From Tubulanus polymorphus (Eukaryota; Animalia; Nemertea): a stretch of 64,000 bases of DNA. The DNA lies in contig NC_134025.1 in NCBI RefSeq assembly GCF_964204645.1, positions 18,017,101 through 18,081,100 on the forward strand. The letters run 5' to 3'. Positions 1 to 60,380 of the stretch are shown piece by piece. Below the pieces are notes generated by a model. It ran no database searches. It was not told the DNA's origin and saw nothing but the letters and a program-made list of their open reading frames with translations. The translations under genes were made by a program, and so were the position numbers. The stretch's first letter is position 1. Every line of letters starts with the position of its first letter.

Positions 1-3000
1 AGATATATATCACAAAAAGCAATTTTTAAAATCAATGGACAAAGGAAATGAATTAAATGAAGACATAATTCAAGACCCACCAATCATAAAAACAATTTAA
101 AAAGTTCATCAAAGAGCTGCTGCTCATGCTATATTTATAAAAAAATCAAATTATCCTGAATTATATGAAAGTCAATATATTTCTTATAGAGGTGAAGATG
201 TAGTAAATGAATTTTGTAATAATATAATTGAATTGAATTGAATTGAATGTGATTTTGCACAATTATTAAATCAAAATAAAAAAATAATTATGACTTAAGA
301 AGATGAAGTTAATTTTCATTATGCAACTCATTGTTGTTATTGTGAAAAACGTTTTTATTCATTTGATAAAAAGTTAAAGATCATTATCATTTAAATTCAA
401 AATATCGTGGAGCAGCTCATGAAGATTGTAATTTACAAGCTAAAAAAGTAAATTTCGTATCAATATTATTTCATAATTTATCAGGATATGATACTCATCT
501 ATGTATAAAACAATTATCAGGAAAATTAGGCGCAATTAATCAAGAAATAGAAGAATATAATGCTATAAATGATGCAAATGTAAGAAAATATGATTTTAAG
601 CTATTAGCTAAGACATCTGAAAATTACATTTCATTTCAATTTGCTTGTTTGAGATTTTCAGATCCTTATAGATTTTTAGCAAGTTCATTAGCTAATTTCC
701 TATTTTAAAGCAAATGATGAATATAGATTATTGTATATCGATGCTAATAATTTATATGGTTGGGCAATGATGCAATATCAACCATATAGAAATTTTATAT
801 TAACAGAAGTAGAAAATGATGATAAAACTAATTGGGAAAGCGCAATTATGAGTTTAGAAGATGATGCTCCAATTGGTTCTTTCTTTGTAATTGATTTAGA
901 ATATCCTAATGATGATATAAAATTAAAATATAAAAACTTACCATATTGCCCAGAACATTAAGCCGTAGATGATAGTTATCTAAATGAATACCAGAAAAAA
1001 ATAAAACTGAACGACCATGTTTTTACAGAAAAATTGATATTAACACAAAATAATGAATGTAATAATATTGTTCATTATAGAATATTAAGATTTTATCTAA
1101 AACAAGGAATGAAATTAAAGAAAGTACATAGAGATATTGAATTTAATCAATCGAAGTGGTCCGAAAAATATATAGATTTCAATACTCAACAGAAAACAAT
1201 ATCTAAAACAGATTTTGAAAAAGATTTTTTTAAAATTAATGAATAATAGTTTTTATGGAAACATGTGAACATATTAGAAATAGAAATGATATTGAATAAG
1301 TAAATAATTCTGAACGATTGGGACATTTACAATCGAGTCCTGGACACTTAGGAAATAAAAGATTTGAAGATTATTTAACAGCAGAAAAATTAAAAAGAAC
1401 GTCAATGAAATCTAATAAACCTATATTCATTGGTTCAACTGTTTTAGAAATATCAAAATTATTAATGTACGATTTTTATTATAATGTTTTACAACCACTT
1501 TTTGGGGAAAAGCATATAAAAAATCTCATATTTTGATTCTGTAATAGCTGATACTCCAATATTATTAAAATACAATAATGAAATGTTAATTAAAAGAATT
1601 TCAGAAATAATTCCTAAACAAAATGAACTTTATATTTCGTATGGTGAAAAAGAATTAATATAAATTAATGAATAAATGGATGTTTGGACAAAAAATGGAT
1701 GGGAAAAATTAAAGAATATAATGAGACATAAAACAAATAGGAAAATCTATAGAGTTAGAACTAAATTACGGTTTGTAGATGTTACTGAAGATCATAGTTT
1801 AATTAAACAAAATCGTGATAAAACCAACTGATATAGAAATTGGAGATGAATTATTACATAAAAAATTCTATTCAAGAATGAATCATATGTCATTTGATGA
1901 AATAATTAATAATATCTGTAACATTAGAAGAAAAAGAATATTTTATCAAAGGATTTTTTATGGGAGATGGTTCAGCAGGTGTTTATAAATATGTTAATTG
2001 CACAAAATATTGTTTGTATTTATGTAATCAAGATTTGAAATTATAAGAAAGAATTAAGAAATACTGTGAAGAAGTTTATTCACACAAAGTTTTTAAAATC
2101 ATAGATATTATGAAATCATCAGCAGTTTATAGAATATATGTAAATAATCCTAAAGATTTAGCAATTAAATATAATGATGAATTCTATATTCACGCAATAG
2201 TAAAAAGCAATACTTCAACAAAATAAAAGGTAGTCCCAGATTATGTATTAAATGCAAAATATAATTCAAGAAAATGGTACTTCGTTGGATTCTACGCAGC
2301 AGATGGTTTAAAAAAATATACAAAAACAAAAACTTTCATTTGCTCAAAAAATAAAAGTTGCTATATCAGGATTGATTAAATATTTTATGCAATTCAGTAG
2401 GTTTTAATACGAATATTGGATTAATTAAATCTAAACCGAAAATATTTAAATTAAGGTATGTTGAAAAAGAATTAACTGAAGAAGTTAGAGATTCATTTGA
2501 AATATATAACCCAACAGATGATGTATATGATTCAACGACTGAAGATGGTACATTTAATTGTGGATTTCCATTAGTTTGCTTAAATACAGATGCTTACATA
2601 CTAAATCAAGACAAAATCAAGACAAATAACATATCAAAAGACTTAAAAACATTAAAACATCATTTTGACTTTAGCAATTATCCAAAAGATCATGAATTAT
2701 TTAGCAACGATAATACAAAAATTCCTGGATAGTTTAAAGATGAATCAGGGGGTGATGAAATGATTGAATTTGTTGGGATATGAAGTAAAATGTATAGTTA
2801 TAGAACTAAAGATCATGAAGCTAAAAAGTTAAAAGGAATAACAAAGCATGTGGTGGATGAACATATAGAATTTCAAGATTATATTAAGTGTTTATATAAA
2901 TCAATAGTAATGAAACATAAAATGAATTGTTTAAGATCAGAAGATCACGAGATGTACATTAATGAATTTGAAAAAAACTAGCTTAAATTCGATGATAAAA

Positions 3001-21399: not shown

Positions 21400-22457
21400 T
21401 AAATATTCCCTCGTGTTTCTATTTAGTTCCCTTTCTGGTGAGGGCACCATGTGACGGTATGGTCTGTCCCTTCCTGGTGGTCTGGTTTTAAGTAAACTAC
21501 TATAGATTTGATGGTACTTGTTCTCAAATTCTGTAGAATTGCTTTGTAAGGGTTTGTGGGTTGAACATATTTGTTTAGCTTGTCGTTTAAATGTGCATGT
21601 GCTGGTGCGTATTGGATTGTTTGGCACATATTTTTAGTTTTTCTGTACCTATAAGCTGATGGGTGTTTTTCATTTCTTTGTATTTACGGTCAATCTTTGT
21701 TGTAAGTGTTAAAAGATAAATAAAGAAAAATATCATACGAAGAATTGTCGCTCGACTTAGCTGATATCTACAGTAGACACATACGTCACTTTCAGACTTG
21801 TTTATTTATATAACATCTATTTATGTTAACTCCAGCTTCCGTACATTTATCTAAACTACTTATCTCCACAACATAATACTGTTCATAATTACATTTGTTT
21901 CAAAAATTTGCATGATACTTCTGCAAAAAAGATTTATTTGAAAGTGAGTTGAGATCTCGATGACAGTAATTGGAAAAGTAGGCTTTCATACCAGAGGACG
22001 AGAGGACGAGACACCACTCATCACCACAAGTAATAATTCAATTGAGTATGAGACACCACTCATCACAGCTAGGCTCTAGTGAGAACGGACGATTGCTCTG
22101 TGACACACATATACAGTGAGTGCGCGTAACAACAGCTGCGCGTGGATAGATCGATACAGTGAGTCTCTACTGAGAACGGTTATTAACGCGTGTGCTATTA
22201 CTGTAGTACAGTGATTGCGTGGCAACTGTACCCGGATAAATAGATGCTGTGAGGCTTAGGTGAGAACGGTTAATAGCGTGTTTGTTATATACAGGGGGAA
22301 GTAATCCCCACTCATCACCACAAGTAATTTGTTTTCCTTATAAATTGGAGATAGAAAAGCATTCTTAGCAACAATAAATAACAGAATAAAACCAGCAAAA
22401 AAACAATTTGAAATAAAAAAGTTAGTTGATGTTACAAAAGAAATTGAACATAAAATA

Positions 22458-22670
22458 TTGAAATTAGAAAATATAAAAACTAAATATGGAGAGAAAGTAT
22501 CAGCTAATTTAAGCTACTGCAATGTTAGTACATCGCGAGAATTTAAAGTATTTTTACCTGATAAATGGGTTTCATTGAGTACAGAGGAATTAAAAGATTT
22601 AGAAGGATTTAAAATAATCTATCATGGAAAAAATGAAGATGGCCATCATGATTTAGAAATTGTTGATTAA
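22458..22670 (+). CDS. Small conserved Polinton protein (true start probably further upstream)
   Basis: Near-identical homologue at 54478-54732 in copy C. Confidence 0.65.
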   Translation: MKLENIKTKYGEKVSANLSYCNVSTSREFKVFLPDKWVSLSTEELKDLEGFKIIYHGKNEDGHHDLEIVD

Positions 22671-22888
22671 ATTTAAAAAATAAATTAATAAAAATAATGA
22701 ATATTAAGAATCCGAAATAACTTATCTGGACAATTTAATTGCTCCGCATAGATGGTGCCATAAACAGAACCCACACAGTGATAGACAAAAGTAGTGAGAT
22801 GGTGCCGTATGGCACCCACATGATGATATTCAATTAATATTCAATTAATTTAAAAAAAATTATTTTTTTTTGCTTTTTTTCTAAAATA

Positions 22889-23242
22889 TTAATCCATTTT
22901 TTTTATTGTCAATTTTGGAATTTCAGAAGTATTTTCATTTTTAATAGCAGTTGTTTCAGAATTATTAATATCATGAATTTTATTTGATTTCTTATACCAA
23001 TTACACCCGATCAAAATGAATACAATTACAAATCCAACCGTAAAATATAAATATTTATCAAATATTCTATTATCAGAAGGAGTAGAAATAACAATATTTT
23101 CACCATTTTTATTAACATTTTTATTACTTATTTTTTCTTTTACAGCTTTTTTATATTCTTGTGATTTAATTCCTAATTGCCGAGACCATTCAATTTGTTT
23201 CTGTGATCTCGGTTTTTTCTTCACTTCTTCCACCTTGTTCAT
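22889..23242 (-). CDS. Polinton hypothetical single-pass membrane protein
   Basis: 117-aa ORF with TAAATG start and hydrophobic YLYFTVGFVIVFILIG. Confidence 0.7.
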   Translation of the reverse strand: MNKVEEVKKKPRSQKQIEWSRQLGIKSQEYKKAVKEKISNKNVNKNGENIVISTPSDNRIFDKYLYFTVGFVIVFILIGCNWYKKSNKIHDINNSETTAIKNENTSEIPKLTIKKMD

Positions 23243-23297
23243 TTATTATAGAAATATTTTTACTTTCAATATTTGAAAATGTTATAACTCCAGTTGA

Positions 23298-23780
23298 TTA
23301 TAATGTCATAAATCCACCTAATTGAAATGATAAATATCCAATCCATTTATTTAATTCAGTCATAACTAAATAATCATTTTTTAAATCGGAATATAATCTA
23401 TTTTCGTCTTCAATTGGTAGTATATAATTACATAATTTACTATAACCTTTTACTACATTTTCTGATATCGCGTCATTAATTCTAGCTGTTCTCGCGGCTT
23501 CATAAATCTTAAATAATCTAATAATTTCATCTGATTTCATTGTATCTAATTCATTATAAGTTAAATTTTTACCGACAAAATTTTTACATTTTCCAGATGC
23601 TATTAATATTTCTAATTGATGTTTACAATAAAGATAATATTCATAATTATTATTTGTTGTAACATTATTTAAAGCACCATCATCTGAAGTTAATTTTGTT
23701 TCTGTTATTCCTAAATCATCTAAAGTTTTTTCAATTAGAACATCACCATTTTTAGATTTTATTTTCTTTTCACCTACCAT
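23298..23780 (-). CDS. Polinton hypothetical protein
   Basis: 160-aa ORF with T-tract/TAAATG start; N-terminus also in copy C near 54106. Confidence 0.7.
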   Translation of the reverse strand: MVGEKKIKSKNGDVLIEKTLDDLGITETKLTSDDGALNNVTTNNNYEYYLYCKHQLEILIASGKCKNFVGKNLTYNELDTMKSDEIIRLFKIYEAARTARINDAISENVVKGYSKLCNYILPIEDENRLYSDLKNDYLVMTELNKWIGYLSFQLGGFMTL

Positions 23781-23812
23781 TTATATAACAAAAAAATTAG
23801 TTGTGATGTTGC

Positions 23813-24082
23813 AACTAGAATTCAACTAGAATGTAACTAGAATTCAACTAGATTAACAAGCTAGTTGAAATATTGTTGTTTTTGTTTATTTCTTGTTAAA
23901 TCTAGTTGATTTTTGTTTCAACTACTAACAACTAGAATTCAACTAGAATGTAACTAGAATTAGACTAGATTGACAAGCTAGTTAAAATATCGTTAAATCT
24001 AGTTGATTTTTGTTACAACTACCAATAACTAGAATTCAACTAGAATTCAACTAGAATTCAATTAGATTAACAAGCTAGTTGA
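23813..24082. repeat. Intergenic array of 11-bp AACTAGAATTC-type units, in both orientations
   Basis: Repeated aactagaattc/aactagaatgt/ctagttga; related array at about 53900-54075. Confidence 0.85.
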
Positions 24083-24084
24083 AT

Positions 24085-24691
24085 TTAAATAAATTCATAT
24101 TTAAATGGGTGTTGTAATCTAAATAGTAATTTTGATCTTTTAATATTTTTCAACTTATCCATATATTCATTATGTAAATCATGTGGAATAATATCATTTT
24201 CCTCAAGTGCATTTTTCATCGATTTTCTATCTTTATTGTAGAATAAAACTAGAAATCTTATATTCTCCCTAAAGTCTTTAACAATTGAATTATATTTTTG
24301 ATTTAAAACCCATGTTGTTATCCCAAAATGTCTCCCAGAGAAAGCTAGATAACATAACTCACTTTCTCTAACTTTTGAATCATGTAAATTTGCGCAATCA
24401 TCTATGATAAATAATGTATTTGATCCTTTATAAATATCAATTGCTATTTTTATACAATTATCTACATTTTCTTTAACTGTTTTAGGATCTAATATAATAA
24501 ATTTATTATTTCTAGTAATATTTCTATCATAAGTTTGATTAAATTCATATGTTGGACAAAATAATACTATATTATCAAAATAGTTTTCATAATGTTTCTA
24601 ATAAATTTAATATAAAATAAGTTTTTCCACAATTTGTTACGCCAGAAATTAACATATTATGAGGCTCAAATATAAATAATTCCTTATTCAT
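24085..24691 (-). pseudogene. A32/FtsK-like DNA packaging ATPase (one frameshift)
   Basis: Walker A ISGVTNCGKT, Walker B FIIDDCA, SGRHFGITTWVLNQKY. Confidence 0.9.
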
Positions 24692-25809
24692 TTATATATT
24701 TTTAATTTTACTTGATAATATCCATTCATTAAATTTATCTGGCCATCCAACCCATTTTACTAAAGAATATTTTTTTCTTTTAATAGTTTTTGTTTTTAAT
24801 ACTTTTTCAATTTTATATTCTTGTTCTAGATTTTCAGTAGTTAAACTTAATTCTTCTTCGTAAAAGTAGCCATCAACTTCTTCACCGTCTAAATCTTCTA
24901 ATTTATAGACATATGGTTTTGTTGTTATTACCTTTTTTATTTTATATATTTCTCTAGTAAAATTTCGATCGTATCCTTTGTCAAATATCTTTTTATACTT
25001 AGAAATTCTAACATTTTGACCAACTTTAAATTTAGGTTCACCAAAATGATCTACAAGAAATGCTCCATATAAATTATTCCAAACAATTTCAGCATTTTCA
25101 GGTTTTCTAGCATCAATAGGTTTCATTCCAATAGAAGAATGATAAGAATTATTATATCCTTCTATCAATTTTGGTAAAACATCAATCCATTTAAAAGTAT
25201 TATTTGCTGTAAAATATTTCCACATTCTTGTTCTTAATGTTCTATTAAATCGTTCAACAAATGCTGCTTTTTTATCCGATTTTGTTGAAAAATATTTAAT
25301 ATTATGATTATCTAAGAATTCATGGACAAGTGAATTATCAAATTCTTTTCCATCATCAAATTGTATTTTTTCTGGTTTAATTTATCATCCGACAGAAATT
25401 TTCTTAAAACATTTGATGTTTGTACAGCATCTTTTCTATAAAGTGGGAAGCTCCATACATATTGACTAAAAATATCAATTATATTCAATAACCACCAATA
25501 ATCATCATTATCTTTCTTAACATTTTTCATATCAATTAAATCTCCTTGCCACTGTTGATCTACATAACTTACCATAGTTTTACGAGTTTTATATTTTCTA
25601 ACAATTTTTGTATATGTTGGTTGTTCTAACATAAATTCATTTATATCTTTATATTAAACTAAATTTTGTGGGATTATCTTATCTAATTTATCTTGTTTTA
25701 CTTTACTCCATATATTTTTGGTAGAAGAATAAGCAACCGAACTCTCAGGGTTGTAATATAAATTTCTTAAATATTGTTCTTTAGTATTAGGAGTTTTTTT
25801 ACCTCCCAT
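24692..25809 (-). pseudogene. Retroviral-like (rve) integrase with C-terminal chromodomain
   Basis: QQWQGDLID, IIDIFSQYVW, DDGKEF, VERFNRTL, YNNSYHSSIGMKP, SLVKWVGWPDKFNEW; frameshift near 25380. Confidence 0.93.
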
Positions 25810-25839
25810 TTATATATCGTTAATTTTAAATTTATATTT

Positions 25840-27088
25840 CTAATATTGAATACTATCTAACTGTGAATTTACAATATTTAATTGTGCGTCAGATATAATA
25901 TAAATGTGCATTTTGAAATTTTGGTCTCCTTTTTTCTTTTTCATGAATAATTGTATTCCATCTTTAGTGTTCTGTAATTTCTTCCCAGAACCATGTAATG
26001 AATTATCCTCTGTTGTTCTAAAATCTAACCATAATGCATATTTATTACCGGTATAATAATCAATTTGATTAATATTACAATTTTCAAATGATTTTACTTT
26101 TTCATTCATAAAATGTTTTCTAATTTCTGGCCATTGATCAATCATTCTCATTCCTTGACAAAATATTTTATTTGCTATTCCTTCAATAGTTATTTCTACT
26201 TTTGTTATTTCAGGATTATAATAATTATCAACCTTTATTGCGCCATTAGTATATGTTGCAATGGTAAAAAATATTAATATACCTTTAATAGATCTTCTTG
26301 GGAAGTTAATATTCTCATTAATTATTTCATCATTTGCAATTATAGTTACAGTTTTAAATTTATCAATATAATCATATAATAATGAAAATCCTTGATTGTA
26401 TTGAGTTTGAATTGTGCTAGCAATATTTTCATTAGTTACTGTGTTATATTCTAAACATATATTCGATAATTTATAACCCATATCTTTAACAACGCTAGAT
26501 AATACAATTTCATTTACAGGAGCAAATGTTATCTCAAATATAATATCTTCTTGAATTGCGTATATATATAAAGGTGCATTATTATTTATCAATTCAAAGT
26601 CTAATGGAGTTTTATATTTGCTTCCATAAATCTTTTTAAATCAAATTATCTGTGGCACGAGTTACTATTGCGTCATTAGCTCCTGATCTTAATTTATTAT
26701 GGTTTTCCGATTGAATACCCTGAAATATCATATTATTTCTATTTTCTTTAGTTAACCATAAATCTTTATAATGCATAAATAAATTATAATCATCTAATGA
26801 GAAAACTGTTTCTGGACCAATCTTTATTGTTAACTTTTTAATCAAATACCTTCCAACATTATCAACAACATAATTGTTATCATGGCCAGTTACTTTTATA
26901 TCAGCTGATAAATAAATACTATTTGGAACATAAAAAGTATTTTGTGTTAATCTAGGAATTCTAACATTTAAAGTTTCATCGGGATTAATATTTGAAGGAT
27001 TATGAGTAATTATATGATGTGATCTTTCTGCTTTAATAGCATTAGATATTCTAGATATCTTAGAAGGACTTATATAACTCCCACTCAT
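25840..27088 (-). pseudogene. Major capsid protein (double jelly-roll type), one frameshift near 26635
   Basis: About 415 aa in total; THNPSNINPDETLNVRIP, FEITFAP, LSNICLEY, PRRSIKGIL, ALWLDFRTTEDNSLHGSG, typical of Maverick capsids. Confidence 0.78.
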
Positions 27089-27112
27089 TTATTTAACAAA
27101 AAAATTAATTAT

Positions 27113-29339
27113 TCATTTTTTATTTATTTTTTCTTGATATCTTTTTGATATCATATTCACTAACCCAAAAATAATAGCACTTACAACTGTAATTAAAAAT
27201 AAGATAATATGTTCAGCAGCAAAGTTAAGAATATTCCCAGCTGATTTCAATATAAAACCAACAATTGATGCAATAATTCCTGGCAATGCTGCAGCAGATT
27301 TTTTAGATAGTTCCCATAGATATTTTGCTAATTTCTTTAAACCATCCTTAACTTTATCTTGTATAGAATTATTATCATTCGGGGGTTTATCCGGTTTATT
27401 GGGAGTAGGAGTAGATTTCAAAGCATTTGATATTGCTAAACCAATTGTTGTAAATAAAACAGTTACAGCTGTTAGAATTGAAAGAATTGTTATTCCTTCT
27501 AATTTAAATAATAACTTTATTCTATCTTTCAGTGATATTTCAGAATTTGGTTTTATCAACAAATCTTTAAAAATAACTTTTAATCTATTAATATTATAAT
27601 CATATGATTTTAATAATAATTTAATTTCTTCTTTTTGTAATTCTATGTTATATTCTAAATCATCAATTTCTTTTTCTAAATATGCATTTCTTTTTTTAAA
27701 TTCAATTTCTTCAATAACTTTATTATCTCTATCTAATTTTAATTGTTCTATTTCTTTATTTTTATCAGTTAATTCTTTTTCTAAAGTTCTAATTTCAAAA
27801 TCTCTTATACTTTTATCATGCGCAATTTTATCAGATGCATTTCTTATACTAATAATCTCTCCAATTGCTTTATCAGAAAATATATCTAAATCTTCTAGTT
27901 GTTGATCTGTTGCATCAACTAATCCATTCGGTAAAAAATTTTCAATTGGAACTTTATTTGATTTAAGATTACTATTTTTGGAAGTTATATTCTGTTCAGA
28001 AGTTGTTTCTGTTTCTAATTTCTTTTTGATTATTTCAAATAATTCATTAATTCTTTGTTTAAATACGTCTATATTATCATCTATTTCTTTTTGTGTAACA
28101 TCAGTTATTTCATTACTATTACTTATTATTTTAATTTTATCTGGTTTTAAACTTTTCTAAGTTGATTCCGCTAATATTTTGGAATCATTATCCAATTTAA
28201 TATTTTTAGTTTTAGTTTCTGATGATTGAATGTGTTTTTTATTTCTTTCACCTTCCATTAATTTTGGGGCAGAATTAATCTTTTTATTTATATCATTTAA
28301 TCCAATTGAATTATTTATTGTTGCAGTTTTAATTAGATTATTGTAACCAATTATATTTCCCATCTTTAATACTAAATCATTAGAAATAATTAATAGATTA
28401 GGGCCTATACAATAATTTAGTCTTACATGAGATTTATCTAAATAATTTTGATATCTCACAATGTTTTCTGGAATCGATCTATTTTTATCATTATGAATGG
28501 AATCTTCAAATAATACTTTGAATTGTTTCTGCGCATCGAATGAAGTGTTATCATTTCCAACTATTGGTGATCTTGTTTCAACTTGCGCACCTAAAATACA
28601 TATCAAATAAGTTCTAATAGATTGATTTATTCTTTGTATACCAGGTTTTGTAAATCCTTCACTATAAGATTCAATAAAATTAATCCATCCATTATTATTA
28701 TCAATTCTATAATCATGATAAGCTCCAATTCTATGCATATAATCAATTCTTTTTATTTCATACTGTTCACCAACGCCATGTAATCTACCATGCGCTCTAA
28801 AATCGGAATTAATATTTATATTAAATTCATTACATATTTTATACAACTTAGATAGATTAATATTATTATCCAATTCTTTAAAATATTTCGATCCAGGTAA
28901 AGGGCATTCTAATTCATTTAATATTATTCTGATTTGAAAATATGTGTGAAATCTAAATATTGTATGAATGAATTTTAAATCAGAATATTTCAAATTTTTA
29001 TCTTAGTTATTCAAGTGTTCATGCCAACTTACACCACAACCAGTTGTTGCACAATGAACAGCAAAATTTAATTGATTCTGCCAATATTTCATATTAGATT
29101 TTACTTTATATATATTATATTCATCTCGAGTAAAAGTAACTTCATATGTATTAAATATATTTTCCATTTTAGAAATAAAATAGTTTGTTTCAGTAACATA
29201 AATTTCTAAATTAATCAATGAAGGTAAAACTTTAAATATTAAATTTAAATATTATCATGTTACTAAAATCTATTGCTGGAATATTATATTTATAATATTC
29301 ATTTGATTTATAATATTGGAAAGATTTTGGAAACCCCAT
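27113..29339 (-). pseudogene. Large Polinton protein (conserved N-terminal domain, coiled coil, C-terminal transmembrane helices), frameshifted
   Basis: ATG at 29339; WQNQLNFAVHCATTGCGVS, RFHTYFQIRIIL, INQSIRTYLICILGAQ; K/E-rich region; hydrophobic 27113-27562. Confidence 0.65.
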
Positions 29340-29355
29340 TTATATAATAAAAAAA

Positions 29356-29781
29356 TTAATAATCAACTAATTCTTTTAATAATTTATCTTGTTCTTCAAC
29401 TGTTATATGACCATTTAAACTTATTATATAATCTAGTGTATTCTTTAATTTATTAATTTCTTTTATATTAGTTTTAATTTTTTCTTTATTACTTTTTATA
29501 TTTAATTTTGAACTTATACCAGTTAAAACACTTGAACTTAATCCTAACACGCCAATTGATATAGCTAAAGGTGTTAATGGACTGAATATTGCTAGAAATG
29601 TTATTACAGAACTAATTGTAACCGAACCACTTATAATCAAATAATATATAATTTTACTTTTTAGATATTTTTTCTCTTTAACTTTTAAGTCACTTTCAAA
29701 TTCTAATATTTGTTTTTCTAAATATATTTTTAATTTAGTTTTATTTATATCATGAGGAATAATATCAATATTATCTTCCAT
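29356..29781 (-). CDS. Two-transmembrane-helix Polinton protein
   Basis: Intact 141-aa ORF; homologue duplicated in copy A. Confidence 0.75.
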   Translation of the reverse strand: MEDNIDIIPHDINKTKLKIYLEKQILEFESDLKVKEKKYLKSKIIYYLIISGSVTISSVITFLAIFSPLTPLAISIGVLGLSSSVLTGISSKLNIKSNKEKIKTNIKEINKLKNTLDYIISLNGHITVEEQDKLLKELVDY

Positions 29782-29799
29782 TTATTTAGAAAAAAATTA

Positions 29800-30222
29800 C
29801 TAATTAGTAAATTTATATGCTACAAATATAACAATAACCGTTCCACCTAAAATCCAAATTATTTCATATTTCTGTTGTTCTTTACTTGGGGTATAATAAT
29901 CTGATAATTTAGGTTTGTATAGATGTAATTTTTCTTTATTGGTTACCGCGTTATATAAACTCATTGCATCATCAACTGATTGAAAATCTCTATGTGAAAT
30001 CTTCTGATCATATAATTCCTTGTTAATATAATCCATATAGTTTTGTCTCTTTTCTCTGTATTCTTCCGCTGCTTTATTGTATTTCTCTAATGCTAAGTTA
30101 TGCCTTCTTTGTTCTCCTAATGAACTATTTTTATCAATATGTTTAAATAAATATCCACCACCAGTAAATGCTAAAGCGTTAACAATTGCCGATCCTATAA
30201 TAGTTATAATTGCAGAAGCCAT
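29800..30222 (-). CDS. Conserved small Polinton membrane protein
   Basis: MASAIITIIGSAIVNALAFTGGGYLF..RHNLALEKY; homologue in copy A. Confidence 0.78.
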   Translation of the reverse strand: MASAIITIIGSAIVNALAFTGGGYLFKHIDKNSSLGEQRRHNLALEKYNKAAEEYREKRQNYMDYINKELYDQKISHRDFQSVDDAMSLYNAVTNKEKLHLYKPKLSDYYTPSKEQQKYEIIWILGGTVIVIFVAYKFTN

Positions 30223-30246
30223 TTATTTAGCAAAAAAATTATGCAT

Positions 30247-30467
30247 TTATATGGGAGGAATATATTTTTGTTTTTCCAAATAATCAATAGTTAAATTAGA
30301 TAAAGTAATTGCTAATGTTAACTTTAAAATATCATTTATATCAAATCTATCAACATTAACACTTCCCATTTTGAATACTTTTTTAATACCATTGAATAAC
30401 CAACAGTTCCAACTGATAGTAATGCTCCATTATATAATCCAGTTATTATCCACTTATTATCACTCAT
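30247..30467 (-). CDS. Small hydrophobic Polinton protein (not in the ORF track)
   Basis: MSDNKWIITGLYNGALLSVGTVGYSMV..VDRFDIND..IDYLEKQKYIPPI; homologue near 9510-9730. Confidence 0.6.
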
Positions 30468-30481
30468 TTATTTATCAAAAA

Positions 30482-30823
30482 ATTACTATCATCAAAATAT
30501 TTAGTTATCTTAGTGATGATTAATTCAACATTTATTTTATTACTAGTTTCATTTGTATATATTTCAATTATTATTTTTTTAATATCATCGATGATAAAAT
30601 CTTCATCTAATTCATAAAATCTTAAAGATTCTCTAATTAAATTAGTAATCTATTCTACATTTAAAGTTTCTTTATCTATTGTTGTTTCATACTCAAATGT
30701 TGTTTCATTAGAAAATGCAATATTTTTAATATGTGTAATTACATCATTAATGTTAAATTTCATTTCTTTCTCACGTTTAAAATCAAATCCAAAACATATG
30801 CTCGGCCAAACAGTTATATTCAT
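30482..30823 (-). pseudogene. Small Polinton hypothetical protein with internal stop
   Basis: MNITVWPSICFGFDFKREKEMKF; homologue near 9168-9495. Confidence 0.6.
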
Positions 30824-30844
30824 TTATATAATGAAAAAATTACT

Positions 30845-31632
30845 CTCTACATCTTATAACTCATAATTCATAAATTACAGGGAAATTATTTAAATCAATT
30901 AAATATCCATTATGATTTCTTATTTCGAATCTAAAATTATTAAAATGCGGAAAACAAGGTTTAAAATCACATTCAGCTAAATTATAATTTATTTGCGTTC
31001 CAAATTGTTTAACATTTTTTAATGGTAAAATATTTAATATACTAGAATTACAAATTGTATCTTTAGTTGCTTCCAATGTTTTTGTAGGATCAATTAAATT
31101 GCAATAAATATAAAAATGTGTAAAAGGTATTATATTTGATATACCATATGTGTTTCCGTAAATATAAGTATCTGAAAGAATTCCTAACAGTTTAGCAAAA
31201 GGTTTTTTTTACCATGTAAGCATGTTTTCTTATCATCACTGAATCATCAAGACTTTCATCATCAAACTTTACTCTAGTAAAATTAGAGCTCTCACTTTTT
31301 ATGAATTTAATATTAAATTTAGAATCACTGCCTAACATAATCCGAGCTTTTCTATTAATTTCTTTCGCTAGTGTTTCTAAATTATATAATCCTGGTGTAA
31401 TCATAAGTTGATAAGATATTTTACTATTACGTCTTTCATAAATAAAAAAGGTTCTATGTTCGTCAGTTTTATCCGTTATATTATAAAAAGAATTACATAC
31501 ACTTATATTAACTAATTTTAAATCTACACAATTCTTAAATGCTCTATCTAATTGTACTAGTAAATTATGTGATTTATAATTTGTAAGTTTTCTAGAATCA
31601 ACAAATATTCTGTATTATTTTAATTCTACCAT
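30845..31632 (-). pseudogene. Minor capsid (penton-like) protein, frameshifted
   Basis: IFVDSR, SFYNIT, ITPGLYNLETL, FYIYCNLID, FEIRNHNGYLIDLNNFPVIYEL: the pattern of Polinton/virophage-like pentons. Confidence 0.72.
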
Positions 31633-31700
31633 TATTTATAACATAAAAAAATTACCGCTCATCACTAAAAATTAATTTTAATAACATTTTTCCTAAATAA

Positions 31701-33010
31701 ATGGATGAGAAGATAGCATGCGAAATTTGTGGTGAACTTCTAAGAAAAAGTAATATGGCTCGACATATGAAAAAACATGATGAAAATTATAAACCCCCTA
31801 AACTAAACTGTCCAAAATGTAATAAATTATTCTCAAGAAATTATGTTAAAAAACATTCAGAGAAGTGTAGAATTAATGGCGCAACGGCTAATGTTGATAG
31901 TAATGAAAATAATAGTAATTCTGCTGAAGTTGAACCTGAAGTTATTTGGAAAAGACCTTTCTGATTCTATGATAAGGATAATATAAAAGATCATTTCTGT
32001 GAGCCTTGTCGAATGAAATATAACCCTGAAAATATAGAAGATTGGGAGAATCATCAATTTCGTAAAGAACATATAGATAAATTTCTAATAAATTTGAAAC
32101 TGAATTCAATGAAAGAAAAGATAATTTATTAGAAAAAATAAAATATGAGAAAACGTTACCAGATAATAAAGAAACAGTTGAAAAGTTAGAAAAACAATAT
32201 AATGAATTAACAAGAAAAACATATTATTGTAAATATTGTAAATTGATTATTACAACAAGTAATTCAAATCTACATAATAGAACGATAAAAAATAAAGAAA
32301 ACGTAAGAAAATACCAAGAGCTTAATGAAGATCTATTACCAATAAATTATAAACGAAAATGTCCGCAATGTAGTTATGCGACCTTAAGACAAGAAGGTAC
32401 TGTGTTATTTTGTAATGAATGTGGATGGCAAAAGAATTTATTGGGTGAAGAAAAAACTAGAAATTTTCTCATAGATCCAAAATTAAATTATCTAGATGAA
32501 ATTTTTAAAATATTTTCTATAGAAGATCATACACCAGAATATATGCAATGGCTTGAAAAAATGAAAATAATAGAAAATAAAAATGGTGAAATGACTAAAA
32601 AAGATATTATAAAAACAATTATTCCGTCAACATTTAACACAAAACAAAAGAAAATGTATTTATATTTATTATTTAACGATTATTATGAAAAACCTAAATT
32701 AACAGAAGAAGATATGAAAAATATTTAAAAAAATATTCAAACAAATATTAATGTATCATTTGGAAAATAGAATAACAGATTCAATAAATTATGAATTCTT
32801 TTTAAATTAGATTGTAAATTATTTAAACATAGATATTATAATTCCATTTGACGAATTAACAAACAAAAAGAAACAAAGAGAGCGAGATGAAATGTGGAAC
32901 AAGATAGAACTTTATTTAAATGAGAAAAATGAAATGGAAGAAGAACCTAAACAATTAAATGAAAATGAAGAAGCCAATAGTGATTTCGAGTATGATGATA
33001 TTGATTTTAT
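31701..33010 (+). pseudogene. C2H2 zinc-finger protein gene(s), frameshifted; convergent with pPolB
   Basis: CEICGELLRKSNMARHMKKH, CPKC..HSEKC, CPQC..CNEC. Confidence 0.72.
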
Positions 33011-33013
33011 GAT

Positions 33014-36000
33014 TTAATGGCCATAAGGTAATGTTTTTATACCATCATCTAAAATATGCCTTTTATCATCAAATGGATTCAAACTAGTTTTTTCAACTTC
33101 ATTAATGTACATCTCATGCTCTTCTGATCTTAAACAATTCATTTTATGTTTCATTACAATTGAGTTATATAAACACTTTATATAATCTTGAAATTCTATA
33201 TGTTTATCAACCACATGTTTTGTTATTCCTTTTAACTTTTTAGCTTCATGATCTTTTGTTCTATAACTATACATTTTACTTCTTATCCCAACAAATTCAA
33301 TCATTTCATCACCCCCTAGTTCATCTTTAAATTTACCAGGAATGTTTTTATTATCATTGCTAAATAGTTCATGATCTTTGGGATAATTGCTAAAATCAAA
33401 ATGATGTTTTAATGTTTTTAAGTCTTTTGTTATATCATTTGTCTTGATTTTAAGTATGTAACTGTCGGTATTTTTTGGATTAATGGGAACCCAGAATTGA
33501 ATGTTCCATCATCTGTTGATAAATCATAAACATAGTCAGTTGGGTTATATATTTCAAAAAAATCTTTAACTTCTTCTGTTAATTCTTTTTCTATATGCCT
33601 TAAATTAAAACAATTTGGTTTAGATTTAATTAATTCTATATTCATATTAAATCCTAATGAACTGCATAATATATTTAATCCTGATATAGCAACTTTTCCT
33701 TTTTGAGCAAAGGATGTTGTTTTGCGGTTTTGGAAACTTTTTGAACCATATGCGGCATAGAATCCAACGAAGAACCATTTTCTTAAATTATTTTTTGCAT
33801 TTAATACATAATCTGGAACTATCTTTTCTTTTGTTGAAGTATTACTTTTCACTATTGCATGAATATAGAATTCATCATTATATTTTGTAGCAAAATCTTT
33901 AGGATTATTTACAAATATTCTATAAACCGCGGATGATTTCATATGATCCATGATTCTAATTGTTTTATGTGAATAAACTTCTTCGCAGAATTTCTTTATT
34001 CTTTCTAATAATTTCAAATCTTGATTGCATAAATACCAACGATATTGAGTGCGATTAACATATTTATACACACCTGCTGAACCATCACCCATGAAAAATC
34101 CTTTGATAAAATATTCTTTTTCTTCTAATGTTTCGGGTTCTATATTATAAATTTATCAATTATTTCATCAAATGACATATGGTTCATTCTTTGGACAAAT
34201 CTTTTATGTAATAATTCATCTCCAATTTTTATATCAGTTGGTTTTATTTCATCGCCATTTCGTTTAATTAAACTATGATCTTCTGTAACATCTACAAACC
34301 CTAATTTAGTTCTAACTCTATAGATTTTCTTATTTGTTTTATGCCTAATAATAATCTTTAATTTTTTCCATCCATTTCTTGTCCAAACATCCATTAAACC
34401 ATTTATTTGTATTAATTCTTTTTCACCATATGAAATATAACATTCATTTTGTTTTGGAATTATTTCTGAAATTCTTCTTATCAATATTTTATTATTATAT
34501 TTTAATAATATTGGGGTGTCAGCTGTAACAGAATCAAAATATAATATTTCAATATGCTTTTCCCCAAAAAGTGGTTGTAAAACATTATAATAAAAATCAT
34601 ACATTAATAATTTTGATATTTCTAAAACAGTTGAACCGATAAATAATGGTTTATTAAATTTCATTGAAGTTCTTTTTAATTTAACTGCTGTTAAATAATC
34701 TTCAAATCTTTTATTTCCTAGATGTCTAGGGCTTGATTGTAAATGTCTTAATCTCTTAGAATTATTTACTAATTCAATATCATTTCTATTTCTAATATTT
34801 TCACATGTTTTACCATAAAAACTATTATTCATTAATTTGAAGAAATCTTTTTCAAAATCTGTTTTTGATATGGTTCTCTGTTGAGTATTTAAATCTATAT
34901 ATTTTTCTAACCACTTCGATTGATTAAATTCAATATATCCATGTACTTTCTTTAATTTGATTCCTTGTTTTAGATAAAATTTTAACATTCTATAATGAAC
35001 AATATAATTGTATTTATTATTTTGAGTAAGTATTAATTTTTCTGTAAAAACATGATCTTTCGGTTTTATTTTCTTCTGGTATTCACTTAAATAACTATCA
35101 TCTACAGTTAAATGTTCTGGGCAATAAGGTAAGTTTCTTGTTTTAAAATTTATTTTATCAGGATATTCTAAATCAACTACAAAGAAATAACCAATTGGTG
35201 CTTCATCTTTTAAACTCGCAATTGCGCTTTCCCAATCAGTTTTATCATCATTTTCAACTTCTGTTCATATAAAATTTTTATATGGTTGAGGTTGCATCAT
35301 TGCCCAACCATATAAATTATTGGCGTCAATATATAATAATTTATATTCATCATTTGCTTTAAAATATCTATCTCCCATAACACCACTAATTCCACCTCTA
35401 ATTGATTTTTCAAATAATAAAACCATATCTGGTTCTTTTAATAAATCTAATTCTACATTTGTATATTTTAAACCACATTGCCAGGTTAAACCAGGACTAG
35501 AGAAGCAATAACAAGGATCAACATTAAAATGATTCAAATTAACTTCTCTAAATCTTTCAAATATGTCAGCCAATATCATAACATCTGATTTTAAATATAA
35601 ATCAACTAATTCACCATGATTTTTCATCTTAGAATGGTTCCAAATATTTAATGTTCTATTAAACACTTCATCTTTCACATACTCCTCTTTTAATTGATCA
35701 AAAAATTGTTCCTTTAATAATTATGTTACATTAAAATCATCATGTGTTTTATAAAATGAATAAGGAATTGCGCCTTTATATCTCAATAATTTAAAATCTT
35801 GTTCATTTGGATAATAATATCGAGTTATTATAAAATCATTATCAACTAAATTTTTTGATAAATTATCTAATGAACTTGCTAGAAATCTATAAGAATCTAA
35901 AAATCTTATGCAACCAAATTGAAATGAAATATAATTTTCAGATGTTTTAGCTAATAGTTTAAAATCATATTTTCTTACATTTGCTTCATTCATAGCATTA

Positions 36001-38079
36001 TATTCTTCTATTTCTTGATTAATTGCGCCCAATTTTCCCGATAATTGTTTTATAAATAGATGGGTATCATAGCCTGATAAATTATGAAATAATATTGGTA
36101 CGAAATTTACTTTTTTAGCTTGTAAATTACAATCTTCATGAGCAGCTCCACGATATTTTGAATTTAAATGATCATGATCTCTAACTTTTTTATCAAATGA
36201 ATAAAAACGTTTTTCACAATAACAACAATGAGTTGCATAATTAAAATCAATTTCATCTTCTCTTGTCATAAATATTCTTTTATTTTTGTTTAATAATTTT
36301 GCAAAATCACTTTCTAATTCAATTATTTTGTTACAAAAATTATTAACTACATCTTCACCTCTAAAAGAAATATATTGACTTTCATATAATTCGGGATAAT
36401 TTGATTTGATGTAAATTCCATAAGCAGCAGCTCTTTGATTAACTTTTTTAATTGTATTTATAATTGGTGGGTCTTGTATTGTGTCTTCATTTAATTCATT
36501 TCCTTTATCCATTGATTTTAATAATTGCTTTTTGTTATATATTTTTTTTCTCTCTTGATCAGTTAATTCTTTATTCAACGGTTCAAAATCCCCATAAATT
36601 ACAAATGGAACAATATTTTTAAATTTATGATTAGTAAATTTCAACTTACAATCTTTTTTTGTTGGCATTATTAATTTACAAAAATCTTTATTATAACATA
36701 ATTCTTTATGTTTTAATAATGTATTCTCAGTCATAAATTTAGATAAACATTTTCTACATAGATAAATTTTATTATGATGATCACTTTCTGTTCTAAAGAA
36801 TAAATCAATTTGTTTTAACCACATATAATGTTCATTTTCATATTTTTTGTCATATAACAAATCTATAGCATTTTCATCATCATAATATTCTGTTAAATAT
36901 ATAAATTTAATATAAAAATTTAATATTTTCACCTTTCGTCTTTGGTAATTGTATTAAGTCGAATACATTTATTTTTAAATTATTAACTTTTTCTATTTTA
37001 GGAATCATTTTTATAGTTACTGGATATTGATCAATTTTATATAATGTTTCATATTTCCGGTAATTTGTTATTCTAAAACTATGCGTCATATCTTCTGTTG
37101 GGTGTAAACAACTAATAATTGACCATAGAAAACATTTATTATCTTCATTTTGAACATTTATTACTGCTTTTGTTGTAAATGGTAATTTAATATAAGATGA
37201 TGCTTTAATATCCTTTTCTGTTGTAAAGTTTGAATCATTTTTAAACATTTTATTACTTTTTGATGTTTTATTCCTTTTTGTATTGTAAACATTTAAATCT
37301 AAATATATAATTTCATTCAATGTTAAGCCAGAACCCTCAAAATATCTTTCTTAAATATGACGTTTAAATTCATTAAATATTTTTTCTAACTTCTCTTTTA
37401 TTTGTGTTTTTGAAATTATTTCTTCAGAGTGTGTTTGAATATTATAATCCATTTTTTCTTCTGACTTTATAAAACTTACTTTCCCAGAGATACTAATTTT
37501 TGGATATTCAACATCTGTTATCAAATCTAGTATTTTTTCTATTATTTCATTAAATTTACTATAATCTTCTATTGTTGTACCTTTAAAAAATCTAAATATA
37601 ATAGCTGCAGGACCAATTTTACTATGTAATGTTTCTAAAATTTCAATTGTATCTTTTATTTCTAGTGAATCAATATAATTTCTAACATTTTCCATGTAAG
37701 GTTTATTTGAAATGGATTTAGTGTTTGAAGTTGGTTTTTTTACTTTTTGAGGTTCATCATCAAAATAATCTTTTCCTAAAACATTATTACTCAAATTTTG
37801 ATGGTGTTTTTGTGATTCGAGATGTCTATTATAATTCCTTTTTACTATAAATTCATCACAAACTTCACATTTTATTTCATCCACATTCATATTTTCTAAT
37901 CTTTCTTTTCTTTCATTGGAATTTTCTGGAGTTTCAAAATCTATTACATTTTTTATATGATTTGCAGTTTTTTCATGTCGTGTTTTATTAGATGTATCGA
38001 CGTATTTTTTACAATATTGGCAATAATATTGATTTTTATTAACATTATTATTTTCTGGCTGGTGTTCATTCTCTCCCAT
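33014..38079 (-). pseudogene. Protein-primed PolB (N-terminal Zn fingers, endonuclease VII-like insert, exonuclease, polymerase) with intein
   Basis: VIYGDFE, VRDHDHLNSKYRGAAHEDCN, FHNLSGYD, FLDSYRFL, YLKSDV, YIDANNLYG, KLMNNSFYGKT, YFD|intein|TDS, KKLKGI; several stops and frameshifts. Confidence 0.96.
33470..34532 (-). other. Intein with LAGLIDADG homing endonuclease (about 355 aa after correcting two 1-bp deletions)
   Basis: Block A SVTADTPILLK; block B VDVTEDHSL; block C FIKGFFMGDGS; block E FFVGFYAAYGS; blocks F/G YVYDLSTDDGTFNSGFPLIQKN followed by extein TDSY. Confidence 0.95.
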
Positions 38080-38639
38080 TTATTAGGAAAAAAAATACTT
38101 GTGGTGATGAGTGGTGTCTCGTCCTCTCGTCCTCTGGTATGAAAGCCTACTTTTCCAATTACTGATGACTTCTTGGCAGATCCTTTTTCCGGTTCTTTCG
38201 GTGATTTTGGTTCAGGCTCTGGTTCGAAAGGAGGACGCGAAGCTGCTGAACTTTTGTCCAGTGTAGAGAAAACACTCGTGAGTGGTGCATCAGCTTGAGG
38301 CCCAGTAGGATTAAAGCTATCAATGATTGTGGAACGTGAAGATATAGACAAATGAGTAGAATGCAAGTAGAACAGTACAGGGTTCGAACTAAGCGCCAGT
38401 CCGACACTATTAAATTTATGATCGGATTTTAATATCTTCCAGCCCATCGGACTAGCTCGTTTAAAATCTGTGTCGCAATTCGCTGCTTATTTGTTTTGCT
38501 TTCTAGCCTATGCAATGATTTCAGATAGGACTAGGGGATTTAAGTCGGACTAGTGAGATAAGAAATCGTCTTTCCCCTTGGAAAGTAGTATAGTTATGAT
38601 TTTGCTTAGTTAATTGATTCATAAACAAAAATACATGTG

Positions 38640-45332: not shown

Positions 45333-45339
45333 ATATAAA

Positions 45340-57394: not shown

Positions 57395-60380
57395 AAGATA
57401 GATAATTATCCTGTTAGAATTAAAAATATCCCAAAAATAGAAAGAGATAATAATATAAAGATAAATGTGTTTGATTTAGTCAAATTGCCAAAAACAAAAG
57501 GTAATTATATTAAACATTATACATTAGAAACTCTTATACTTATCAAAAGATTATGATTCAAATGAATCATATATTATGAGAATCATTATATGTGGATAAA
57601 ACGTATTGATTTATTTTTCAAATCAGAAAATGATTTTGATAATAAAATATATCTATGTAGAAAATGTATAACTAAATTCAGAACCGAAAGTGCATTATTA
57701 AATCATAAACAATTATGTGAAAATCATGATTATTGTAAAATAGTTTTACAAAATGAAAAGGATAAAGTATTAGAATTCAAAAAATATGATTACAAGAATA
57801 AAGTACCATTTGTTATATATGGAGATTTTGAATCATTAAATAAAGAATTAACTGATCAAGATAGAAAAGAAATATATCATAAAAGAAAGAAATTAAATTC
57901 TAATGAAAATGATGTTATTGATTATTCAGATCCTCTAATAACAAATACAATTAAAAAGATTCATCAATCAGCTGCAGCTTTTGGATTATATATAAAATCT
58001 GATAATCCAGAACTAATCAAAAGTGAATATTATAATTATAGAAATGAAAATGTTATAAATCGTTTTTGTGACTTATTAATTGAGTATGAAATCAAATTTA
58101 GTAAAGTATTAGATACAAATAAAGAAATTATAATGACGGAAGAAGATAAAGAAGAATTTGAGTTTGCTGATAAATGTTATTATTGTGAAAAACTATTTAA
58201 TTATAAAGATAAAAAAGTGAGAGACCATGATCATTTGAATGGAAAGTGCGGTGCACGAGAATTGTAACTTACAAGAAAATCAATTTTGTTCCAGTAATAT
58301 TTCATAATTTATCAGGGTATGACGCTCATTTATTTATCAAACAGTTATGCCATAAGATAGAAGAAATCAATAATGAAATAGGAAGATTAAATTTAAATAG
58401 ATCAAAAGATAAAATACCAACTAAATTTAAAATGTTAGCTAAAACGTCTGAGAATTATATATCATTCCAATTTGGGTGTCTAACTTTTATAGATTCATAT
58501 AGATTTTTAAGTAGTTCATTAGATAACTTATCAAAATCATTAGTTGATGATGAATTAAAGATATTAAAACAACACTACCCAAATAATGATGATTTTCAAT
58601 TAATCAGATATAAAGGCGCAATTCCATATTCATTTTATAAATCGCATAATGATTTCAATATAACTGAATTATTAAGAGAACAATTGATGATGAATTAAAA
58701 AATGATGAATTAAAAAATGAATATGTTAAAGATGAAGTCTATAATAGAACATTGAATATTTGGGATCATTTCAAAATAATAAATCATGGACAATTAGTAG
58801 ATTTATATTTAAAATCAGATGTATTATTATTAACTGATATATTTGAAAGGTCTAGAGATGTAAACCTAAAATATTTTAATATTGATCCTTGCCATTGTTA
58901 TTCATCACCAGGATTAACTTGGGATTGTGGTTTAAAATTTACAGATATAAAAATAGATTTGTTAACAAATATAGATCAATTATTATTATTTGAAAAATCT
59001 ATAAGAGGAGGAGTTTCAGGTGTATTAGGTGATAGATATTTCAATGTAAATGATAATCCTGGATATAAGTTATTATATATAGATTATTAAGTTATTATAT
59101 ATAGATTATAATCTTTATGGATGGGCAATGATGGAACCATAACCTTATGGAGTATTTGAAGTAAGTGAAGTTTTACAACATGAAAATAATAAATTTGATT
59201 GGAAGAAAAGAATTCTAGATATTGCAGATGATTCAGAGACTGGTTACTTCTTTGTTGTAAACTTGGAATATCCTGAAGATAGAAAATTTAAATCTAGAAA
59301 TCTAGCATACTGTCCAGAACATAAAACTGTAACGCATGAAGAATTATCAAATCATCAAAAAAGAATTAAACCCGAAAATCATATTCCTACAGAAAAGTTA
59401 ATGGTAACTCAGGAAGATAAATATAATTAAGTAGTGTATTATAGAATGTTGAAATTTTAATTGAATCAAGGAATGATTCTAAAAAAAGTACATAGATATA
59501 TTTCATTCAGTCAATCTAAATAGTTAGAAAAATATATAGATTTTAACACCAAACAGAGAACTAGAGCTAAAACTGATTTTGAGAAAGATTTCTTCAAACT
59601 AATGAATAATGCATTCTATGGTAAGACTTGTGAAAATATTAGAAATAGAAATGATATTGAGTTAGTTAGTAATGGTAAAAGAATTAGACATTTACAAACA
59701 TATCCTAAGTTCATAGGTAACAGAATATTTGATGAAAATTTAGCGGCAGTTAAAATGAGGAGAACATCTATGAAATTTAATAAACCAATCTATGTTAGAG
59801 CATCAGTTTTAGAAATATCAAAACTATTAATGTATGAATTCTATTATAACGTATTACAACCTCATTTTGGAGAAAAGCATATAGAAATCATATATTGATA
59901 TTGATACTGACAGTTACATAGTAAAGATAAAAACTAATAACATAACTGATGATTTAAAAACATTAAAACATCATTTCGACTTTAGTAATTATCCAAAAGA
60001 TCATGAATTGTTTGACAATGATAATAAAAAGGTGCCTGGTAAATTCAAAGATGAATTAGGAGGTGAAGAAATGATAGAGTTCATAGGTATTAGATCTAAA
60101 ATGTATTCATATAAAACTATGAACTCATGAATCAAAGAAATTGAAAGGAATAACCAAAAGCGTTGTTGAAAAGAATATTCATTTCAAAGATTACATCAAT
60201 TGTATATTTAATGAAGAAGTTAGAAAACATAAGATGAAATGTTTAAGATCTGAGTACCACGAGATGTTTATTGAAGAAATTGATAAGGTTAGTCTAAATC
60301 CATTTGACGATAAAAGATATATTCTGGATGATGGTATACACACAGTTGCTTATGGTTGCAATTTAGGAGAATATCTATAA
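57395..60380 (+). pseudogene. Intein-less pPolB pseudogene (copy D)
   Basis: VIYGDFES, FHNLSGYDAH, MNNAFYGKT; contiguous ATT GAT ACT GAC AGT TAC (IDTDSY) at 59900-59917. Confidence 0.93.

Follow-up and report, generated by a model that had tools for sequence, protein, structure and literature searches.

What is a 1,063-base-pair (bp) piece of protein-coding DNA doing in the catalytic motif of a virus-like DNA polymerase gene that lies in a cellular genome? The gene belongs to a Polinton/Maverick element (element A, its genes being referred to as copy A) within a 64,000-nucleotide stretch of contig NC_134025.1, hereafter the window, i.e., the whole stretch of DNA that was analysed. It encodes a protein-primed family-B DNA polymerase (pPolB; PolB for the family), and the insert splits motif C of this polymerase as YFD|TDS. 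Based on the splicing residues, profile matches and intact relatives described below, we consider it very probable that a full-length intein, complete with a LAGLIDADG endonuclease, has lodged here in the polymerase motif C of a Polinton whose host is likely an animal, and that the intact members of its family are predicted to splice and to home. The polymerase gene and its insert are laid out as follows (window positions):

34533..38079, minus strand: N-extein of the pPolB, with three stops and a frame change; PF03175 at 27.8 bits on 35,268-35,720
33470..34532, minus strand: predicted intein within polymerase motif C, Hint plus LAGLIDADG; frame broken near 34,153 and 33,476
34155..34532, minus strand: predicted N-terminal splicing region with Ser1 and block B TEDH; frame continuous with the N-extein; from TIGR01445 and a PI-PkoII match
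33598..34152, minus strand: predicted LAGLIDADG homing endonuclease domain, bounds approximate; from PF14528 (24.1 bits) and a motif table
33470..33597, minus strand: predicted C-terminal splicing region with block F VYDL and the terminal Asn, start approximate; aligned to intact homologues
33014..33469, minus strand: C-extein of the pPolB, first residue Thr+1

Read along the minus strand, the N-extein ends as ...HIEILYFD at 34,533, the insert begins with SVTADTP from 34,532 and the polymerase resumes with TDSYIL from 33,469. A frameshift-aware read-through (X at the breaks) gives 355 positions and two frame breaks, in agreement with the 355 codons after two corrections counted in a preliminary description of this locus made from the sequence alone, whose placement of the split at 33470..34532 also proved exact (genomic reads skip precisely these 1,063 bases, see below). 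Its expectation that removing the insert would restore the polymerase was borne out as well, the four closest intein-free relatives (P0162-P0165) reading YFD|TDSYIL across the joint. A profile search, which it had proposed, recovered both domains above curated cut-offs: the N-part scores 36.2 bits (E = 9e-9) against TIGR01445, an NCBIfam intein model with a cut-off of 24.5, and the middle matches Pfam LAGLIDADG_3 (PF14528, 24.1 bits, cut-off 22.5), and given that both scores exceed their cut-offs, these domains are not chance matches. The N-part alone scored 17.1 against Pfam Intein_splicing, below the cut-off of 35.8, and among PDB sequences it matched PI-PkoII (E = 1.4e-4) and two mini-inteins.

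The splicing blocks announced earlier, Ser1, TEDH of block B, the terminal Asn and Thr+1, are all present, together with VYDL of block F; the penultimate position, however, is Lys and not His. The terminal Asn followed by Thr recurs in a second intein-bearing copy of the window (copy B) and in 6/6 homologues, and the penultimate residue is Leu in copy B and His in four of the six homologues. A missing penultimate His is a known variant (Mimivirus also has Lys) and is not disqualifying. As for the two LAGLIDADG motifs that had been reported, the first is intact in copy A and the second is there, without its catalytic acid; both motifs keep their catalytic acids in copy B and in the six homologues. 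A spliceosomal intron was rejected as an explanation of the insert, which codes for a conserved protein and is in frame in the homologues.

Copy A itself is dead: the insert has two frame breaks, and the polymerase contains stops. Those of the N-extein lie at 37,351-37,353, 35,721-35,723 and 35,265-35,267 and its frame changes near 36,910-36,950, i.e., the polymerase is broken upstream of the insert and therefore no precursor arises from copy A, a correction to the preliminary description. At the first frame break of the insert, 151 of 207 reads from an independent study differ from copy A, so that at least this break is private decay of copy A; at the second, 31 of 116 differ.

The family does have intact, in-frame members. 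Five pPolBs (P0001, with 61% intein identity, P0007, P0014, P0017 and P0018) carry the intein in full and four more (P0002, P0126, P0264 and L081) are partial, the intein being carried by three of the 120 pPolBs closest by extein. Between copy A and P0001 the inteins are 61% and the exteins 57% identical, and between copy A and P0007 the figures are 47% and 44%. The P0014 intein is 46% identical to that of copy A (E = 1e-97) and the Mimivirus intein 37%, and in neither case does the extein have a significant BLASTP match to that of copy A. PF03175 scores 111 bits on P0014 versus 28-62 on copy A, P0007 and P0001, which suggests that P0014 and the window-type polymerases correspond to the Alpha and Beta PolB classes of Starrett 2021 (PMC8502044, main text), the weak score of copy A pointing to the divergent Beta class.

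Among the best 120 of 893 matches to the P0001 intein there are 5 pPolBs, 1 topoisomerase II and 114 RNA-primed family-B polymerases, with the named Mimivirus PolB at 39% identity. The pPolB inteins are 35-42% identical to the giant-virus inteins of the same motif-C site (Pol-c). Thus, giant-virus-type inteins are the nearest relatives outside protein-primed polymerases and occupy the same site as in Mimivirus, as the preliminary description held, and the six strings that it ascribed to Mimivirus are all found in the Mimivirus PolB (P0086). In viral contigs, 80 loci at 32-42% identity were recovered, all of them less similar than the pPolB inteins; these DNA loci were classed as giant-virus-type by contig names, 20 of the 80 being named as giant-virus metagenome-assembled genomes. 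A further pPolB case (L081) turned up among the 80 loci of a metagenome scan, and another such scan, with full-length P0001, found nothing. In a search of 50% representatives, none of the 141 new proteins among the best 150 of 3,144 matches fitted the pPolB extein profile; intein-bearing pPolBs are therefore rare in that library, as far as the matches listed go.

An AlphaFold model of the P0001 intein (36 rows; predicted local distance difference test value 92.6, predicted template modelling score 0.91) finds its best structural match in the TliVMA intein (E = 1.7e-17, template modelling score 0.64) and also matches PI-PkoII, PhoVMA, PI-PfuI, PI-SceI and I-DmoI (entries 7qsu, 7qss, 2cw7, 1dq3 and 1vde), so that a Hint beta-fold around an inserted nuclease is predicted for this homologue, not for copy A. 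The same intein family was also seen at other sites, i.e., at motif B and just past motif C of giant-virus-type PolBs and in type II topoisomerases (P0280-P0287, P0013, P0022, P0025, P0028; P0373, P0397, P0401, P0414, P0288 and P0016), some of these proteins holding two or three intein copies.

Two further Polinton copies of the window show the site in its occupied and its empty state:

1538..2585, plus strand: copy B, the second with an intein, 88% identical to A in DNA; four stops and four frame breaks
59880..59925, plus strand: unoccupied site in copy C, which is more distant (exteins ~80% identical in DNA)

Copies A and B are 88.3% identical in the intein and 88.6% in the upstream extein. 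Genomic reads from the independent study, which carry the same species label, cover the insert continuously, and 39 of them skip exactly 1,063 bases, 17 at the joint 33,469>34,533 and 22 at the same joint shifted by 4 bases; nine more skip 1,071 bases, with other letters between. Summed read depth is ~200 over 11 insert bins versus ~400 over 10 bins of the upstream extein, from which rough arithmetic gives an intein in roughly half of the copies that are alike at 85%. Empty alleles are thus at hand in copy C, in the reads that skip 1,063 bases and in proteins P0162-P0165; the intein family is polymorphic, occupied and empty alleles coexisting in the window. Where the preliminary description pictured a single crossing, we find a polymorphic family in several polymerase lineages. 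That the insert is an assembly artefact or a chance insertion of unrelated DNA might be entertained given that no single contig or read spans the whole stretch, yet the two copies in the window, the continuous read depth, the precise empty-site joints and the intact homologues with the insert at the same site refute this explanation, whose probability we regard as negligible. Next to its empty site, copy C has a short insertion that breaks the frame; a scar of repair was considered here and discarded, copy C having ~50 frame-breaking gaps in a 2.4-kilobase (kb) alignment.

Between copies A and B, the ratio of nonsynonymous to synonymous substitution rates (dN/dS) is 0.26 in Hint-N, 0.29 in the LAGLIDADG part and 0.13 in Hint-C (each p<0.001), and the sequence comparison thus shows purifying selection on all three intein parts; the N-extein, at 0.27, is similar to them. 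The cluster around P0007 (136 members, on contigs of up to 1 Mb) bears on whether the nuclease still works. It mixes proteins of 1,537 and 1,191 amino acids, the difference being the 346-amino-acid intein, and among 15 of the 136 members that were listed seven are occupied, with intein motifs in none of 90 further members. When the seven intein-bearing proteins are compared with the four nearest full-length intein-free ones (1,191 amino acids), the exteins are 97-99% identical and all nine fixed extein differences fall between -7 and +43 residues from the site, a clustering reached in none of 200,000 draws of random placement. Such site-centred differences could stem from co-conversion of the flanks or from escape of empty alleles, and either would imply an active nuclease. 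Across 124 proteins (P0162-P0279 and the P0007 cluster), the empty motif-C site reads DTDS in 32, DCDS in 26, DTDG in 23 and DTDA in nine, while in 18 the site was not found and 16 were mis-anchored or other; hence 58 of the 90 classified empty sites have DCDS, DTDG or DTDA instead of DTDS, variants that may possibly represent escape from the nuclease.

How such an element would operate can be proposed from conserved residues and established intein chemistry, on which our predictions of splicing and cleavage rest. Following the standard class-1 pathway, Ser1 would undergo an N-O shift, the chain would be transferred to Thr+1 and cyclisation of the Asn would release the intein, rejoining the YxD-TDS catalytic motif into a working polymerase. 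The endonuclease would cleave a second Polinton genome within the same cell at its unoccupied motif-C site, and repair templated by the occupied copy would transfer the intein along with some flanking DNA. As to origin, we postulate a single capture from a giant-virus-type PolB occupied at the same site, by way of the catalytic motif that the two have in common. Thereafter, the intein would have been inherited, lost and regained by re-invasion in Polinton lineages, and at least once it would have jumped from one polymerase class to a very distant one.

Intein trees were built with FastTree (114 and 233 rows, 15 near-duplicate rows being dropped from the first) and under LG+G4 with IQ-TREE (37 rows), archaeal Pol-c inteins lying outside the set; five inteins of the motif-B site served as root. 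The pPolB inteins form one clade in all of them (support of 99 and 100 in the FastTree analyses of 114 and 233 rows, 100/99 in IQ-TREE), and both rooted maximum-likelihood trees place this clade inside the giant-virus-type Pol-c inteins, without a supported sister. On the extein tree, the intein-bearing polymerases are scattered: six changes are needed (70 rows and 27 rows alike), counts that do not separate gain from loss, and their monophyly is rejected (approximately unbiased (AU) test, p-AU 1.8e-29). The P0014 intein branches beside the window copies (99/93 and 92/90 in two trees) and, on this sequence evidence, is an exception to the pattern of descent with loss seen in the main group. 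Two candidate pointers to a donor were dropped, as neither tree supports the groupings concerned, namely Mimivirus as the specific donor and the shared C-terminal string GFPLI as a marker of a donor clade.

These trees favour, without proving, a transfer from giant virus to Polinton. For the crossing proposed in the preliminary description, the intein trees give the nested position, but Mimivirus is not specifically the sister and an outside position is not rejected (p = 0.113, see below). A broader proposal, which we put forward tentatively and rate slightly short of an even chance, is that animal germlines hold a live intein-homing system, in which a giant-virus intein entered the catalytic motif of Polinton pPolBs, jumped between the two distant polymerase classes and is still spreading among copies within host cells, with empty copies escaping by changes in a motif that is otherwise conserved. 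Several findings weigh against our main reading. Both intein copies in the window are dead, and the clustering of differences rests on 11 related proteins and could reflect one event. A pPolB clade held outside the giant-virus inteins is not rejected (p-AU 0.113), no sister group being supported. Just one named lineage (Mimiviridae) stands among the 231 giant-virus-type Pol-c rows, the rest having been classed by Pfam PF00136. Lastly, the intein tree of the main group is compatible with the extein tree, forced extein-like groupings not being rejected (p = 0.084 and 0.13), so that part of the scatter is accounted for by long-standing vertical inheritance and numerous losses.

These same tests feed two competing accounts. 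In one, a splicing-competent intein was gained once long ago and has since only been inherited or lost, homing no longer driving its spread. It draws on the similar intein and extein distances within the main group (61% vs 57% for copy A and P0001, 47% vs 44% for copy A and P0007), on the equal A/B identity in intein and upstream extein and on the topology tests that fell short of significance. We nevertheless consider this account quite improbable, because the endonuclease is under purifying selection (dN/dS 0.29) with both acids kept in six homologues, occupied and empty alleles occur at 97-99% identity with their differences massed at the site, and P0014 has the same intein in an extein that is not alignable. 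In the other, the pPolB intein was taken not from giant viruses but from some unsampled polymerase, be it eukaryotic, archaeal or of a phage, or is an old sister of the giant-virus inteins. The AU result and a backbone without resolution leave room for it, and the same site is occupied in archaeal PolB according to Ogata 2005 (PMC549080, in the portion available), archaeal Pol-c inteins being outside the tree set. It is, however, opposed by the 114 RNA-primed family-B polymerases among the best 120 matches, by the nesting of the pPolB clade in both maximum-likelihood trees rooted on motif-B-site inteins and by an identity of 37-39% between the Mimivirus and pPolB inteins versus 24% between Mimivirus and its best archaeal match (given in the same portion of PMC549080); we hold it to be unlikely. 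A capture from a giant-virus-type polymerase remains our favoured origin.

Is the carrier of this insert truly a Polinton, and is its host an animal? Polintons are characterized by terminal inverted repeats, AG...CT ends, a 6-bp target duplication and a length of 15-25 kb. The features of element A other than its polymerase are:

21959..21964, plus strand: left copy of the target-site duplication, 6 bp, GATGAC
21965..38163, no strand: Polinton/Maverick element A, 16,199 bp, termini AG...CT; 24% GC, flanks 38-39% GC
21965..22032, plus strand: left terminal inverted repeat, 68 bp, perfect
24085..24597, minus strand: A32-like packaging ATPase, C-terminal part; Pox_A32 28.1 bits, above cut-off
24692..25653, minus strand: rve integrase with chromodomain, frameshifted; rve_3 weak here, while the copy at 62.5-63.5 kb reaches 34.5 bits for rve
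25840..27088, minus strand: likely double jelly-roll major capsid protein, two pieces; Capsid_N E = 9e-4, below cut-off
38096..38163, minus strand: right terminal inverted repeat, 68 bp
38164..38169, plus strand: right copy of the target-site duplication, 6 bp, GATGAC

Element A thus combines a pPolB, an rve integrase, an A32 ATPase and a capsid-like gene with 68-bp repeats and GATGAC on both sides over 16,199 bp, and on account of these genes, repeats and duplication it is an integrated Polinton, as had been claimed. No adenain-like maturation protease was matched among the 18 element open reading frames (ORFs) scanned, ORFs below ~130 amino acids being mostly outside the scan and the element being decayed. 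The inner end of the terminal repeat recurs as a partial second copy at 22,308-22,334, ~300 bp inside the left end. ORF(s) of zinc-finger type at 31,701-32,728 (plus strand) run opposite to all other element genes and converge on the polymerase. Short tandem repeats (CAACTAGAAT-like) lie at 23,767-24,092 and 53,899-54,074, downstream of the ATPase gene in two element copies. Further partial Polinton copies (72-90% identity to element A) span 1-11,250, 52,600-54,800 and 57,400-64,000, giving a nest of four or more copies in the window, and copy B contains a 300-bp direct duplication (96% identity) at 10,166-10,915.

Element A is flanked by long interspersed nuclear element (LINE) reverse transcriptases, a hAT transposase, a Helitron and a GIY-YIG element. 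The hAT-type transposase frame is open over 735 codons (17,089-19,296, plus strand); the Helitron (42,970-49,970) is decayed, fragments of Rep and of the PIF1 helicase being left, and carries a 145-bp tandem array (46.3-47.2 kb) as well as a 67-bp array (49.7 kb). It is from the look-alikes of these transposons and from the named polymerase relatives, the window holding no host gene, that we take the host to be likely an animal; of the animal germline entry claimed at the outset, the integration is observed and the animal host is this likelihood. Chordata or Cnidaria are commonest in all four listed Atlas look-alike clusters of the flanking LINE reverse transcriptase, animal phyla lead in seven of nine Atlas look-alike rows of the hAT transposase, and, of the named polymerase relatives, those that have a plausible host come from a coral and a ribbon worm (43-45% identity); another named match, filed under a bacterium, is probably a mis-binned contig. 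A protist, alga or other eukaryote as host, i.e., the kind of organism in which intein-bearing endogenous viruses have precedent, would fit the missing host gene, the two hAT rows in which Streptophyta are commonest and the metagenomic origin of the closest polymerase relatives. Set against the LINE, hAT and polymerase signals just given, such a host appears very improbable.

Has anything of this kind been described before? In the full-text literature we found no Hint-type intein reported for any pPolB or animal genome, in line with the novelty claimed initially; most subscription journals, Repbase and InBase were not covered, so that a prior note is possible. The absence of an intein in a Polinton extends to the accessible portions of PMC12220804, PMC13768754 and bioRxiv 10.64898/2026.10.13.758929. 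A survey reports zero inteins for Metazoa in the available main text and supplement (Green 2018, PMC5784728), and intein-inhibitor work, as far as its accessible text goes, rests on the absence of inteins from animals (PMC8529194). Should the present reading hold, what is likely an animal genome would contain a canonical intein, albeit one lodged in a resident virus rather than in a host gene, and Polinton polymerases would gain a real splicing element where only speculation stood. Given that homing requires donor and target in one cell, the intein bears on whether animal Polintons meet giant viruses and each other, and, if true, it would be a molecular record of animal Polintons sharing infected cells with giant viruses. 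The coexistence of occupied, empty and possible escape alleles makes homing directly testable.

Among known systems, the closest are the Pol-c ('site III') inteins of Mimivirus and other giant viruses, which share with copy A the D|T point of motif C, the Ser1/Asn/Thr+1 residues and a central LAGLIDADG domain. The Mimivirus PolB intein has 351 amino acids (residues 1053-1403; Ogata 2005, PMC549080, in the portion available) against 355 positions in copy A, with a penultimate Lys in both and 37-39% identity to the pPolB inteins. Unlike in Mimivirus, the host protein here is the protein-primed PolB of a 16-kb integrating element and not an RNA-primed Pol-delta-like enzyme, the gene is present in many chromosomal copies of a cellular genome, and the exteins are not alignable by BLASTP.

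Intein-bearing viral-type DNA polymerases have been reported on nuclear scaffolds of Klebsormidium, Tetrabaena and Hondaea (Gallot-Lavallee 2023, PMC10710043, accessible text; a term search of two of its supplements came back empty). There, as here, an endogenous virus brings a polymerase intein into a eukaryotic nuclear genome; the available text, however, concerns giant-virus-like genes in algae and a protist, whereas the present case is an integrase-encoding, multicopy Polinton in a likely animal, with occupied and empty alleles. Inteins of invertebrate iridoviruses, e.g., Chilo iridescent virus (cited in PMC549080 and listed among the references of PMC5784728), likewise reside in viruses of animal cells, but in free lytic large DNA viruses, and the Chilo intein ends in Gln (per the available part of PMC549080), unlike the Asn of copy A. 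The algal, protist and insect-virus precedents lower the surprise.

On the Polinton side, the main text on adintoviruses (Starrett 2021, PMC8502044) has zero occurrences of intein, homing or LAGLIDADG, and the element type it describes agrees with ours in its pPolB, rve integrase, A32 ATPase, capsid-like gene, terminal inverted repeats and 6-bp duplication. HNH and VSR nuclease insertions are known in Polinton pPolB (Jeong 2023, PMC10748475), again with zero occurrences of intein, Hint or LAGLIDADG in the main text, and one sentence in the accessible text of Krupovic 2024 (PMC11071308) suggests that pPolB nuclease inserts stem from intein invasions. In contrast to these HNH/VSR inserts, as set out in those portions, the insert of copy A comprises a predicted splicing domain together with a LAGLIDADG nuclease and is placed within the catalytic motif. 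Compared with all of these, the intein considered here is an element of a known kind in a new host protein family and likely in a new host kingdom, with signs of continued mobility.

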